64,000 bases of DNA from Octopus vulgaris. Lineage: Eukaryota. This document shows positions 8,526 to 55,679 of this stretch, piece by piece. Under the pieces are notes generated by a model. It saw only the letters and a program-made list of their open reading frames with translations, had not been told where the DNA came from and ran no database searches. Location of the stretch: contig OX597823.1 of the NCBI GenBank assembly GCA_951406725.2, positions 27,838,001 through 27,902,000 on the forward strand. Direction: 5' to 3'. Within the stretch, counting starts at the first letter, position 1. Each line of letters starts with the position of its first letter. The position numbers and the translations under genes are program-made.

Positions 8526-9031
8526 TTTTGAGTTAGGCTTTGTATGTAACCATATAATAGTTCTATAAGTATAATATGTATATTATTTTATGTGGTGGAT
8601 ATTAACTAGAATCTGTTTTTTTTTCTGTCTTTGTATTAATCCCGTCTAAGTGCAATGTCCATTTCTCTTTTTTTGTGTGTTGACGCGATTAAAGTATTCT
8701 TACAAAAATAAAAATAAAATTGTTGCTGGTCGTGTGGAAATATCCATTGACAAAACATTTAACTTACTTTGATGTAGTTTTACTTAAATGCTTTGGAAAT
8801 TATGTAGTCTTCTGCTATTTGTAAGGAACAATGTGTATTTGGCGAATGTTTACTAAAACCTATATAACTTGGTGAATTCTCGTGAGATTATTGGAAGTAC
8901 TCGATTGGTGAAGGAGCAATGTGTAGTTGATGAATGTTTAGTCGGTGCTTTCGTCAACTCTAACTGAAATCTATATAACTTGGTGAAACGCTTCTTGTGC
9001 GATTAATTGAAGTGAGTCATTCATTGGTGAA

Positions 9032-9070
9032 TGTAGCTGATGATGAAGTAAGCGCGAAACATGTAACTCT
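9032..9070 (+). ncRNA. degenerate hammerhead motif in a Penelope-like terminal repeat
   Basis: CTGATGA...GC-GAAA-CATG-TA with palindromic stem III; stems I and II are damaged. Confidence 0.4.
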
Positions 9071-9504
9071 TATGGTTTATCACACTTGTCAAATAGAATT
9101 GTTTAGTTCCTCAGTTATTTCAGAACATCTGTTATTGTAATCACACCGTATATATTTCAGGTAAGACAAAGGTATCAGAGAAAACTAGTCATTTTAATAC
9201 CTGCGCTTAGTCTTTGGCTAGCAGGCTTAAACCATCGCTCAGTTGAACACATCTAAACGATCCTTTTGTGGTGATTTTAATCTGTTGTTCAACATAACAT
9301 CACCTCCTGGTCTTTGGATTTTGCTTTTAGCGGTCAACTTAGTTTTAAGCATTCGGTTCAGAACTCCGACCTCGGAATACGTTCTCCCATTTCTCCCACC
9401 ACTCACTTGAGTTCCGCACTCCAACAGTTATCTCCCTTGTTTGGCTAAACCTAAATATCTTAAAAACAATCTACACTACAAATAAATATGCAGAAAAAAG
9501 ATAA

Positions 9505-35683: not shown

Positions 35684-36071
35684 TACTCTTTTACTTGTTT
35701 CAGACATTTGACTACGGCCATGCTGGAGCACCGCCTTTAGTCGAGCAACTCGACCCCGGGACTTATTCTTTGTAAGCCCAGTACTTATTCTATCGGTCTC
35801 TTTTCCCGAACCGCTAAGTGACGGGGACGTAAACACACCAGCATCGGTTGTCAAGCAATGCCAGGGGGACAAACACAAACACACACACACATATATATAT
35901 AGATATATATACATATATACGACAGGCTTCTTTCAGTTTCCGTCTACCAAATCCACTCACAAGGCATTGGTCGGCCCGGGGCTATAGTAGAAGACACTTG
36001 CCCAAGATGCTACGCAGTGGGACTGAACCCGGAACTATGTGGTTGGTTAGCAAGCTACTTACCACACAGCC
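35684..36071 (-). mobile_element. SINE family A
   Basis: Near-consensus copy. Confidence 0.92.
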
Positions 36072-36145
36072 AAATTATTTTTTTTCATTTTAACCTATTT
36101 TCAATCATTTGTAAAAATTTAAAAGTGATATTCGGAAATTGGTAA

Positions 36146-36535
36146 GTGTGGTAAGTAGCTTGCTTATCAACCACATGGTTCCAGGTTCAGTCCCACTGCG
36201 TGGCACCTTGGGCAAGTGTCTTCTACTATAGCCTCGGGTCGACCAAAGCCTTGTAAGTGGATTTGGTAGACGGAAAATGAAAGAAGCCCGTCGTATATAT
36301 GTATATATGTACGTGTGTGTATATATTTGTGTGTCTGTGTTTGTCCCCCCAACATCGCTTGACAACCGATGCTGGTGTGTTTACGTCCCCGTAACTTAGC
36401 GGTTCGGCAACAGAGCCCGATAGAATAAGTACTAGGCTTACAAAGAATAAGTCCTGGGGTCTATTTGATCGACTAAAGGCGGTGCTCCAGCATGGCCGCA
36501 GTCAAATAACTGAAACGGGTAAAAGTAAAAGAGTA
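36146..36535 (+). mobile_element. SINE family A
   Basis: Near-consensus copy, inverted relative to 35684-36071. Confidence 0.92.
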
Positions 36536-39112: not shown

Positions 39113-39517
39113 AATTACTATTTGTAAATCTTACAACGAGAGATATTTAGCAACAGTACTTTGTAGTACTCCAAAATACTGTTGCTGAATATCTCTCATT
39201 GTGAGATTTACAAATAGTAATTTTCTAATTTATAAATCAGTGACTAGTTGTCACTTTGAAAACTATATATTTTAGCTGTGTCACCTCTAGCCAAACAATT
39301 ATTCTGAGCTGATGAAGGGAAATAACCCGGAAATCGTGATACACAGATATTGTTTTGAGCTTAGTGGGGCTGCTAGATTCCCTTGTTCGAAAATATGACA
39401 CTGATTGTGACGTATAGCCAGCTGGAGACGATGTCTCCTGGGGCTAAATTAGAGCAACATTTGTCCTAAACCAGGACTGCCATTTTATGTTGGCAAACAA
39501 TCTTTACTCCACTACTC
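39113..39517 (+). mobile_element. 405-bp hairpin-plus-hammerhead retroelement inserted in a SINE A
   Basis: 14-bp TSD CACTTGCATAAGAT at 39099-39112 and 39518-39531; 110-nt palindrome; hammerhead motif. Confidence 0.85.
39304..39346 (+). ncRNA. type I hammerhead ribozyme motif
   Basis: CTGAG-CTGATGA-A-GGG-aaataa-CCC-G-GAAA-TCGTGA-TA-CACAG; full CUGAUGA and GAAA core, one stem I mismatch. Confidence 0.7.
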
Positions 39518-51054: not shown

Positions 51055-52152
51055 ACCTTTCTACTAGAAGCACAAGGCCTCAAATTTGGGGGAAGAGATT
51101 AAGTCGATTACATTGACCCCAGTGTGTAACTTGTACTTATTTAATCGACCTCCAAAAGGATGAAAGGCAAAGTTGACCTCGGTGGAATTTGAACTCAGAA
51201 CGTAGCAATAGGGGAAATTCTGCCAAACATTTCATCCAGTGTGCTAATGGTTCTGCCAGCTCACTGCCTTTATAAATATAATAATAATAATAATAATGAT
51301 AATAATAATAATGACAATGACAACTGGTTTGAATATTTGCAAGTTACGACAGACAAATAGATTTGATAGATCGAGAGAGCGCAAGAGAGAGAGAGATTAA
51401 TGGTCAGATGTAGCAACAGTCATGTCTGCAACTCCTGTACAGAAGCATCCACCCCTCCAAATACATGCACACACACACACACACACGTATATACAGACAC
51501 AAACACACACATACACTATATACACAACATATGTATGTACTAACATAGTGACACATAACTATGTATACATACACACACATCAACAAGATCTGAAAGAGGA
51601 ACCCTCTGCATATCCTAAAATGTTATGACTGGGGATGTTTCAGTAAACTTGAAATATATGATAATAATCCTTTCTTCTATGGCCACAAGGCCGGAAATTT
51701 TTGGGGAGGGAGCTAGTTGATTATATTAACCCCAGCCCCTAACTGGTACTAAGTCCCTAACAGGTCCTTATCTAATCAATCCAAAAGGATAAGAGGCAGA
51801 GTCAAAATGTGTGATAATAATGGTTTCAAATTTTGGCACAAGGCCAGTAATTTGGTGGGTAGAGAGGTAAGTCAATTACATTGACCCCAGTGCACAACTG
51901 GTACTTAATTTATCGACCCTGAAAGGATGATGAAAGGTAAAGTCGACCTTGGTGAAATTTGAACTCAGGAAATGTATACTAATGATCCTTCCTGCTATAG
52001 GCAGAAGGCCTGGTACTTAGTTTATTGACCCCGAAAGGATGAAAGCTAAAATAGACCTCGATGGAATTTGAACTCAGAATGTAGCGACGGATGAACTACC
52101 ACTAAGCATTTCGTCCAGCGTGCTACAACAATTCTGCCAGCTCACTGCCTTA
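51055..52152 (-). mobile_element. cluster of SINE B copies and fragments
   Basis: Homology at about 51055-51270 and 51668-52152. Confidence 0.8.
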
Positions 52153-52560
52153 GAAATGTATTCCAATAATAACATGAAATGTAGCCTCTCTTTGACTAAT
52201 GACAATTACATCACATTTTGAAAGTTCTGTTTATGGTTCTGCTTTTGGATTCCAAGTACAAGAAGAAACTATGAAATACTTAATGAACAAAATACACAGT
52301 GAAACCCTTAAATCCCCAAGATGCAACTGAAAGGGTCAATTAAGTCACTTCTTCGGAAGATCTAAATGTGATCAGTAGATTCCTCAAAATGTCATCGAAA
52401 TATCATCTCCCATTGTGACATGATGCCATTACTAAAACAATAAACGATGTAATAAAGACTGCTTTGGGATAGATACAGACAACGTCCCTCTTATTGATGG
52501 AACATTCCTATCAAAACCTCTGCTAAGTGCAAATATAACAAGTTTGATATACATTATTTA

Positions 52561-52628
52561 CATATGGCATAGTGGTTAAGAGTGTGGGCTACTAACCCCA
52601 AGATTCTAAGTTCGATTTCAAGCAGTGA

Positions 52629-52663
<35 letters not shown>

Positions 52664-52793
52664 TTGTATAGGAATGAGAACCCAGGTTTGAAATTTTCCC
52701 AAGACACCTGATGAAGGCTGGAGGGTATATCAGCCAAAATGTTGTGTTAACAACAAACAAGATGAGGACAAATATCCATCAAATGTAAATAAT
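52561..52793 (+). mobile_element. SINE family D: tRNA-like head with hammerhead-bearing tail
   Basis: A box TGGCATAGTGG, B box GTTCGATT, (AAT)n spacer, hammerhead motif. Confidence 0.85.
52703..52748 (+). ncRNA. minimal hammerhead motif, CpG-decayed (G12A)
   Basis: GACAC-CTGATGA-A-GGCTG-gagggtatat-CAGCC-AAAA-TG-TT-GTGTT; restoring two CpG transitions gives GAAA-CG. Confidence 0.65.
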
Positions 52794-53423
52794 GGTCAGA
52801 ATGTAACAACAAACAAAACAGTGCTGAGCATATTGGCAGGTGTGCTAACGATTCATCAAGCTTGCCACCTTGATGATGATGATAATAATAATAATAATCA
52901 TAATGATAATGATTACCTGATGTGTCAACGATTCTGCCAGCTTGCCGCTTTGATATAATAATAATATTATTAGTAATAATAGTAATAGTGCAAAAAGGAG
53001 TCTGAACAATGAAAAGCTGACATTAGGATGATGATGATGATGATTAAGGTCAGCTGTTCTGTGGCTATCATTATGTCTTTGAAAATCTGTGAGAAGAAGA
53101 ATATTTATGGATAGCTGTTTTGAAGCCTGCACCTTCACTACTTTGATTATAAATTCACACGTCTTCAAATTTAATGATTTATTTATTATAAAATCACACA
53201 ACAATTGCTTATGTAGATCGTTATGATATTAGATATTTAAATGACCATCTGCAAAAGCTAGGACTTTTAGGCAAAGAAAGTGACCAACAAATGACACTTT
53301 TCTTATACAGTCTGTAAATGGAACTGTAAGAATAAAAAGATTTCCCTAAAGTTCAAGATGTAACACTTTCACAATGTAACACTTTTAAGATGTAACACTT
53401 TCTGTTTTGGTTGTCTAAATATC

Positions 53424-55126: not shown

Positions 55127-55256
55127 GTACATGTTTATAGTGTGTCTGTATGCAAACACCTGCACTTTACACTTCCCATCACACACAAGTAACATGATTT
55201 GTGCCTGGCGGGAAGTGTAACATATATGTGTTTATTTACAGACATGCTGTAAATGT

Positions 55257-55592
55257 CTTTTAAATATAGAACTGCTCACGAGCATATGCCGTGGTGGTTA
55301 AATGTGCGGGCTACTAACCCCAAGAGTCCGAGTTTGATTCCAGGCAGTGCCCTGAATAATAATAATGACGACGACGACGGGGACGGCGATGGTGGTGACG
55401 GCTTCGGCGGCGAGGACGACGATGTTGACGACTTTAGGAATGAGAACCCAGGTTCGAAATTTCCCCAAGACACCTGATGAAGGCCGGAGGGTATATCAGC
55501 CAAAACGTGTTAACAACAAACAAGATGAGGACGAATATTCCTCAAATGTAAATAATGTAAATAATTCCTCATCTCTTAAATATAGAACAGTA
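55257..55592 (+). mobile_element. SINE family D, second copy, terminally redundant
   Basis: TSD CTGTAAATGT at 55247-55256 and 55593-55602; internal terminal repeat TTAAATATAGAAC; hammerhead remnant at 55469-55511. Confidence 0.85.
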
Positions 55593-55679
55593 CTGTAAAT
55601 GTGTCATATACTTGTATATTAGATTCATATACAAACTTGTATAGATATCTACTCATACCAGTGTAGATACTTGTACATT

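Follow-up and report, generated by a model that had tools for sequence, protein, structure and literature searches.

The window, a 64,000-nt stretch of Octopus vulgaris DNA, carries two plus-strand copies of a composite unit made of a tRNA-like head, a microsatellite spacer and a hammerhead motif, both where the initial annotation had placed them. In copy 1 the head (52561..52632) begins 4 nt upstream of box A (52565-52575) and runs through an anticodon-like arm of the form GGG-CTACTAA-CCC (52586-52598) to box B (52610-52619). An (AAT)n spacer (52633..52662) leads to an ATG at 52674, from which the 5' end of the ORF of a Penelope-like element (PLE) extends over 52674..52794, with a TTTT at 52694 that was created by a C to T change, and stops at the first of the family's two clusters of 3' ends (about +121). 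Within this ORF part lies a minimal type I hammerhead (52703..52748) with the architecture described in PMC4209133, a broken core and a predicted cut after 52743. At the upstream edge of the copy, 14 nt on the minus strand (52550..52563) are an inverted remnant of the element's first 3' end, which is the inverted-partner arrangement found in many other loci of the family.

Copy 2 spans 55257-55590 and is bounded by the arms of a 10-bp target-site duplication (55247..55256 and 55593..55602). It opens with a direct fragment of PLE tail, a partial tandem (55257..55274) that abuts the start of the head (55274..55354; box A T at 55287, box B at 55332-55341), and the head start lies at -12/-13 relative to the box A T, which is the main 5' boundary of the family. 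A degenerate trinucleotide spacer (55355..55433) is followed by the ORF 5' end, with its ATG at 55440, and the full PLE tail as far as the second 3'-end cluster (55440..55590), which includes a hammerhead at 55469-55511. The two copies are 83% identical in the head and 92% in the tail, the head of copy 1 is 90% identical to the family majority, and the ATG of each opens a frame that runs through the hammerhead. Both are dead relics of a decayed Penelope family. Just 5' of copy 1 the window also contains minus-strand fragments of another abundant SINE-like repeat (about 51200-51270 and 51850-52152), which we presume to resemble the Nin/Deu-type octopus SINEs.

Neither hammerhead in the window is intact. 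Copy 1 departs from the family core by two CpG transitions (GAAA to AAAA at 52736 and C to T at 52740), as had been annotated, and copy 2 shares the G to A change and adds a change in stem II and a 3-nt deletion spanning the predicted cut site. The family majority nevertheless keeps an intact core. Among copies unselected on the hammerhead, the first position of GAAA is G in 99, A in 18 and a gap in 7, and the family therefore has CCGAAACGTT; all 15 core positions are kept in 19 of 118 unselected copies. The proposal of a minimal type I hammerhead of the PLE kind thus stands, in the layout of PMC4209133. Covariation of the stems, which had been suggested as a check, would hold across families at most: none was seen within this one, and 17 distinct hammerheads of related PLEs share the layout with different stem sequences (stem I of 1-5 bp, stem II of 2-8 bp). 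The suggested search with the Rfam hammerhead model gave no match on copy 1 or on an intact copy, and neither a tRNA nor a hammerhead was among the matches listed by the Rfam scan of the window, copy 1 and the intact copy. In the minimum-free-energy fold of the intact copy stems I and II form, with an energy no better than that of shuffled sequences (z -0.83). Two more hammerhead-like motifs of the form CTGATGA...GAAA occur on the plus strand of the window (9027-9080 and 39299-39350); they are unrelated to the tRNA-headed family and are possibly decayed ends of other PLEs.

The family is large. In the genome (2.80 Gb in 227 contigs) the intact hammerhead of 39 nt has 1,218 exact matches and a head motif of 22 nt has 2,931; the reversed pattern of either has none, so that neither motif can be attributed to chance. 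Since the exact head motif is present in 25 of 124 unselected copies, there should be roughly 14,500 heads genome-wide, and since the exact 39-mer is present in none of 111 unselected copies, the hammerhead-bearing ends likely number tens of thousands, as a rough estimate. The copies sampled were the first matches on one contig (C1) together with the best-scoring matches, and the hammerhead-selected set consists of 90 of the first 100 exact-hammerhead places listed on that contig. One alignment row (L215), which lay in the wrong orientation, was left out of account. Because even long copies are only 89-94% identical to the majority sequence, the family looks inactive, and it has the appearance of an old and decayed one.

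The unit was initially annotated as a tRNA-promoter SINE mobilised by a Penelope-type reverse transcriptase rather than by a LINE. The second half of this proposal is borne out and the first is not: rather than a separate SINE, the unit is a solo copy of the terminal repeat (pLTR) belonging to an autonomous retrotransposon of the Penelope type, which has reverse transcriptase (RT) and GIY-YIG domains. PLE coding sequence was found in the flanks of tail-selected loci, and a genome search with that frame gave 150 scored matches. Of 30 ORF-selected loci, one of them that of the query itself, 22 have the head directly after the ORF stop, as do 18 of 20 longer loci, six of which repeat loci of the first set. 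Two near-full copies (L062 and L340) have the direct arrangement pLTR-ORF-pLTR. The majority monomer is 2,652 nt long and holds an unbroken ORF of 835 aa and 144 nt of non-coding sequence, in the order ORF stop, 23 nt, head, (AAT)n, ATG, a hammerhead inside the ORF, and the two 3' ends. The ORF thus starts within the head-hammerhead unit and is read on across the hammerhead. An autonomous element sharing the 3' tail had been anticipated; it exists, and what it shares is the whole unit including the head, not the tail alone.

The RT was recognised by a PF00078 match on a natural frame of 569 aa (E 2.7e-6, under the Pfam cut-off). The protein is 40% identical over 575 aa to a related protein, P0069, in an alignment that takes in the GIY-YIG (PF01541) stretch of P0069 at the C-terminus; the element's own frame gave no direct GIY-YIG match in Pfam. 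No zinc-finger-like linker between RT and endonuclease (EN) was apparent by eye in the translated frames of the long loci, and a sequence search of the PDB returned no matches. The proteins closest to the ORF (P0166, P0173, P0001 and P0169) are 72-76% identical to it, and a set of barnacle cluster members about 60%. A search of the octopus genome with the protein P0003 brought up no closer sister family, its matches being of 40-64% identity and many of them at places already known, and no relatives were found among five candidate viral contigs. PLE ORFs also occur on metagenome-assembled contigs labelled as prokaryotic (L350-L366), most likely as contamination from a host animal.

The ends of the copies conform to what is described for EN+ PLEs. 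In the 90 hammerhead-selected loci the 3' ends fall into two groups that lie about 33 nt from each other, one near +121-129 and the other near +151-165 counted from the ATG, and an inverted partner is present in 51 of the loci. Target duplications of at least 8 nt flank 34 of 72 inverted loci and 8 of 48 other loci (two loci being counted twice), compared to 4% of controls. The element therefore has the combination expected of an EN+ PLE, namely an ORF with RT and GIY-YIG domains, direct or inverted pLTRs, a 30-40 bp tail and a minimal type I hammerhead. As in Penelope/Poseidon-type elements such as PAc of the anole (PMC11167929; PMC4209133), there is a single ORF with RT followed by GIY-YIG; the hammerhead in the pLTR is of the minimal type I, has one unpaired base before stem II and is overlapped by the ORF; the 3' ends are two, separated by 30-40 nt; partial repeats occur in direct and in inverted orientation; and the targets are AT-rich. 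The ATG lies upstream of hammerhead stem I in the octopus element, whereas that of PAc lies at stem II.

Several individual loci deserve mention for their structure. Three structurally different insertions on contig C1 (L099, L167 and L204) went into one and the same position in another abundant SINE-like repeat and carry an identical 13-bp target duplication; this position is a target hot spot. In seven loci (L172, L180, L183, L184, L189, L196 and L197) the 5' part of the ORF, to about +540 to +1250, is fused to a short piece of the 3' pLTR, which suggests that internally deleted copies arise by RT jumps within one pLTR-ORF-pLTR RNA. Another retroelement, which judging by its frames we take to be a restriction-like-endonuclease LINE of the Dong/R4 kind, joins the pLTR at the (AAT)n spacer in L002, L028, L219 and L223, and also in L008 (645-1016); these joints would explain some of the copies that have only a head or only a tail.

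What is new in this element is the tRNA-derived cassette in its pLTR; PLE structure and minimal hammerheads are already known. The cassette, with its box A and box B, occupies the place of a T-rich spacer in related PLEs: of 18 relatives in which both the ORF stop and the hammerhead are present, 15 have TTTT in the spacer and none has a box B there, and two of the three spacers lacking TTTT are artefacts of 0 and 7 nt. Some EN+ PLEs retain an intron in the 5' UTR; the octopus leader is about 100-130 nt long and has no T-rich tract. A Pol III-type head was correctly recognised from the sequence in so far as both boxes and the anticodon arm are present, but it is not a full cloverleaf; ARAGORN called no tRNA in any of 11 head loci, the T stem and acceptor stem are decayed, and the minimum-free-energy fold of the head is worse than that of shuffled sequences. 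The best-scoring of the 10 host tRNAs compared with it is Arg-TCG, which agrees in 49 of 75 columns. In the literature we found no account of a PLE pLTR with a tRNA or Pol III head, although a curated consensus may sit in Repbase, Dfam or supplements; none appears in the portions consulted of PMC8557442, PMC7761336, PMC7229834, PMC13282606, PMC8967140, PMC6962438 and bioRxiv 10.64898/2026.07.22.740005.

The position of the 5' ends gives the cassette a plausible function. Among 105 head-bearing copies (117 loci), 69 reach box A, and 52 of these end within the next 15 nt. The frequency of 5' ends per nucleotide is 0.072 at the head start, 0.020 and 0.026 in the neighbouring bins and 0.002-0.005 farther off, with peaks at -13/-12 and at -6 (box A T = +1), and of 24 ends that have no detected inverted neighbour (one locus counted twice) none falls between -14 and -30. 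Pol III starts some 10-20 nt upstream of box A and stops at runs of at least four T. The concentration of 5' ends just upstream of the head therefore makes it likely that the element was transcribed from a captured tRNA-type promoter. We propose that the feature is a solo pLTR whose tRNA-derived head likely served as a Pol III-type promoter, with RNA starting about 13 nt upstream of box A, and we put the probability of this reading at roughly 0.65; that the tRNA-type boxes set the start at -12/-13 is, from the sequence evidence, probable. Cleavage by RNase P was considered as the cause of the peak at -6, which corresponds to tRNA position 1, and this reading is unsupported because the acceptor and T stems are mismatched.

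If Pol III transcribed more than the pLTR, terminators should be scarce in the ORF as well. The sense strand of the 2,652-nt monomer contains no TTTT, against 31 runs of A4. The number expected in the ORF is 2.9 with codon usage kept (P 0.028), or 5.3 (P 0.002), and the Phe codon TTT is used 6 times in 20, compared to 90 T-ending codons of 157 in five other two-fold families (P 0.03). In control ORFs TTT-Phe is not avoided (0.56 and 0.56). Related PLE ORFs show no depletion of TTTT: 51 independent ones, drawn from 59 bodies of at least 1,200 nt, contain 510 such runs where 444 or 422 would be expected; one of the 51 lacks them, and two reach P 0.03 or less. The deficit is only moderate, and runs of G4 are absent from the monomer just as TTTT is. 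One related PLE on a metagenome contig (L234, 2602-4745) has a TTTT-free ORF region of 2.1 kb and a T-rich pLTR; it was considered as a second tRNA-headed PLE and rejected, its pLTR being without the boxes. Transcription of the whole PLE by Pol III is a possibility we hold only tentatively. Equally tentative is the broadest form of the idea, in which an autonomous coding retrotransposon would be transcribed as a whole RNA of 2.65-3 kb by Pol III from a captured tRNA promoter and would have purged its ORF of terminators; the one RNA would serve as full-length template and would also have given rise to the SINE-like solo ends, tens of thousands in number, and the copies would record hammerhead cuts in vivo.

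Other features of the head region complicate this picture. At -13 to -3 lies a short palindrome, where many of the joints are of the inverted or snap-back kind; the 5'-end peak could thus be raised by template switching. The head is found upstream of the ORF N-terminus in seven loci, and four of these extend past the supposed start (to -68, -188, -307 and beyond -543); some templates therefore began farther upstream. A search of sequencing runs for the family listed no RNA run among those that contain it. In RNA reads from three runs (about 6% of each) both mate directions are equal and track the 3'-heavy copy number, about 70% of the reads run on into unlike sequence, and junctions at -13 recur. 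In this sample no pile of read starts was seen at the head or at the hammerhead, which fits a discrete transcript being present or absent. Translation also needs an account: an uncapped Pol III RNA would require a different route to translation, and the predicted hammerhead cut would remove the ATG, although Pol II transcripts reading through copies that lie in host genes could supply the PLE protein.

A rival explanation, which we regard as unlikely, is that a tRNA or SINE fragment was captured passively to give the head, that Pol II transcribes from a promoter in the pLTR as it does in other PLEs, and that the 5' pile-up is a Pol II start or the product of palindrome-driven template switching. 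PLE promoters do lie in the pLTR (PMC6765202, PMC8557442), a head followed by (AAT)n resembles a short retroposed insert, the T and acceptor stems have decayed, L234 demonstrates that a TTTT-free ORF can arise without a head, and Pol II solves the problem of translation. Against it, the boundary lies 13 nt upstream of a box A that matches the consensus and is followed by a box B at the distance found in tRNAs, the T-rich spacer of relatives is missing, and both TTTT and TTT-Phe are under-used. Moreover, no head was seen outside the element among the 30 head-selected loci: the tail follows the head in 24, which answers the earlier concern over head-tail linkage, and of the six tail-less loci four have an inverted tail and two run into (AAT)n.

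Returning to a promoter-bearing pLTR, we propose the following mechanism. RNA would start at the head of the upstream pLTR and could read through the TTTT-free ORF into the downstream pLTR. The PLE protein would nick both strands of AT-rich DNA and begin reverse transcription at an internal position of the RNA, near +125 or +157 in ORF numbering. In vitro, the anole PLE nicks both strands and its RT initiates at two internal sites (PMC11167929), and these sites match the tail ends of the tRNA-headed family. Initiation at the 3' pLTR would give ORF-bearing copies. Initiation at the 5' pLTR would instead give a SINE-like head-to-tail copy of 250-350 nt as the enzyme runs off the RNA 5' end, and internal initiation of this kind may have shed thousands of SINE-like solo pLTRs. 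Two cDNAs primed from opposite nicks would produce head-to-head pairs within one target duplication. Most templates probably escaped cutting by the hammerhead, a minority being cleaved, and insertion would not need cleavage.

A somewhat different source for the short copies would be a true SINE, in which solo pLTRs are transcribed by Pol III to the first flanking TTTT and copied in trans by the PLE protein. Short head-to-tail copies do dominate, with only 6 of 90 hammerhead-selected central copies reaching more than 30 nt upstream of box A; a tailed solo copy holds about 160 nt of the ORF start, near the 172 nt required by the anole PLE (PMC11167929); and PLEs can mobilise other RNAs in trans (PMC8557442). 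We consider it improbable that this route made most of the short copies. A SINE should have a head that is absent from its partner element, but here the head belongs to the autonomous pLTR. Comparing 135 solo with 47 ORF-linked pLTRs, the majority base is the same at all 255 positions and no difference passes Bonferroni correction, and non-CpG divergence is similar (4.1% for solo and 4.9% for ORF-linked copies, the solo ones having been chosen on exact motifs, which lowers theirs). Because the two classes agree in majority base everywhere, no separate SINE family is seen. No rearrangement common to several loci was seen, and the one flank shared by three loci reflects independent insertion into the same repeat.

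The initial annotation had also called the unit a candidate retrozyme. That it is a non-LTR retrozyme, whose tandem units the hammerhead would cleave into monomers for circularisation and rolling-circle copying, is very improbable despite the type I hammerhead, the footprints at its cut site, partial direct tandems such as that of copy 2 and the proposal that retrozymes derive from PLE pLTRs (bioRxiv 10.64898/2026.07.22.740005), because copies end at the head start and the RT start sites rather than mainly at the cut site, 51 of 90 loci have inverted pairs and one close direct tandem was seen (L090), and the hammerhead is of the minimal PLE form. No tail-to-head joint was among the joints listed from the three RNA runs, whose libraries are ill-suited to circular RNA.

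Two kinds of footprint lie at the predicted cut site, which falls between +70 and +71 of the ORF. Gaps of 3 nt number 23 at the predicted cut and at most two at any other tail position, the (AAC)n run included, and the 3-nt deletion is present in 20 of 138 unselected copies. It occurs in one arm only for three of four inverted pairs. An origin of the deletion in a subfamily was rejected, as no linked variant survives 359 tests and usually one arm is affected. The 5' ends of 245 unselected copies show a mild excess at +70 to +75 (10 against 3.8 expected, P 0.006), which is weaker in a wider window of +69 to +77 (11 against 5.7, P 0.03). The deletion hot spot and the excess of ends are hints, read from sequence, of fossil traces that hammerhead cutting in vivo may have left. 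RT crossing a cut RNA by means of 2-nt microhomology would give both the deletion and the 5' ends, and slippage could be an alternative source of the deletion.

Comparison with known systems helps to place the element. It departs from other EN+ PLEs in that its 5' ends pile up at the head start and sense TTTT is absent, and its tRNA-derived head with box A and box B is unlike the T-rich spacer of the 18 relatives. The accepted view is that an autonomous retrotransposon depends on Pol II, and it is in non-autonomous elements that terminal repeats with Pol III promoters have been described (PMC10886601). The TRIMp3 elements Cassandra, Helenus and Ajax resemble the octopus pLTR in having a small-RNA-derived Pol III promoter inside a terminal repeat, for which an origin by SINE insertion into the repeat was proposed, and their autonomous partners were argued to require Pol II; unlike these short non-autonomous LTR elements, the octopus carrier is an autonomous, protein-coding PLE (PMC10886601). 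The schistosome repeats Sm-alpha and Sj-alpha similarly combine a tRNA-related Pol III-type sequence with a type I hammerhead at high copy number, but they are non-coding tandem repeats in which the hammerhead cleaves multimers, and the portions consulted of PMC2770079 and PMC6765202 do not present them as terminal repeats belonging to a PLE with an ORF. Metazoan non-LTR retrozymes (PMC7229834, PMC7761336, bioRxiv 10.64898/2026.07.22.740005) share the type I hammerhead, a unit of 150-400 nt and a link to PLE pLTRs; they form tandem arrays and circular RNAs, whereas the octopus copies are dispersed or inverted and identical to an autonomous pLTR. A word search of the text consulted for two of these three sources found neither a Pol III or tRNA promoter nor the octopus.

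A Pol III-type promoter would be unusual for a protein-coding element. If our reading is correct, the Pol II requirement would have an exception in this PLE, which carries a tRNA cassette where its RNA begins and lacks terminators, and the element would offer a plain route from a PLE end to SINE-like or Sm-alpha-like repeats. The high copy number makes the family a natural read-out of the RNA start, both RT start sites, two-strand priming and target duplication, and possibly also of hammerhead cleavage in vivo, whose role is called a mystery in PMC7761336. Repeat annotation would wrongly class solo pLTRs of this kind as tRNA SINEs. Should Pol III play no part, what is left is a decayed Penelope family of the ordinary sort that has captured a tRNA-like fragment.

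Two further observations concern tRNA-related sequences. In the window, a long inverted repeat at 36018-36195, with arms of about 45 nt, contains tRNA-SINE-like sequence and gave a spurious match to MIR2606. Elsewhere, at L315 (138-2854), seven tRNA-Cys-like genes are clustered within 3 kb, two of them with altered anticodons.
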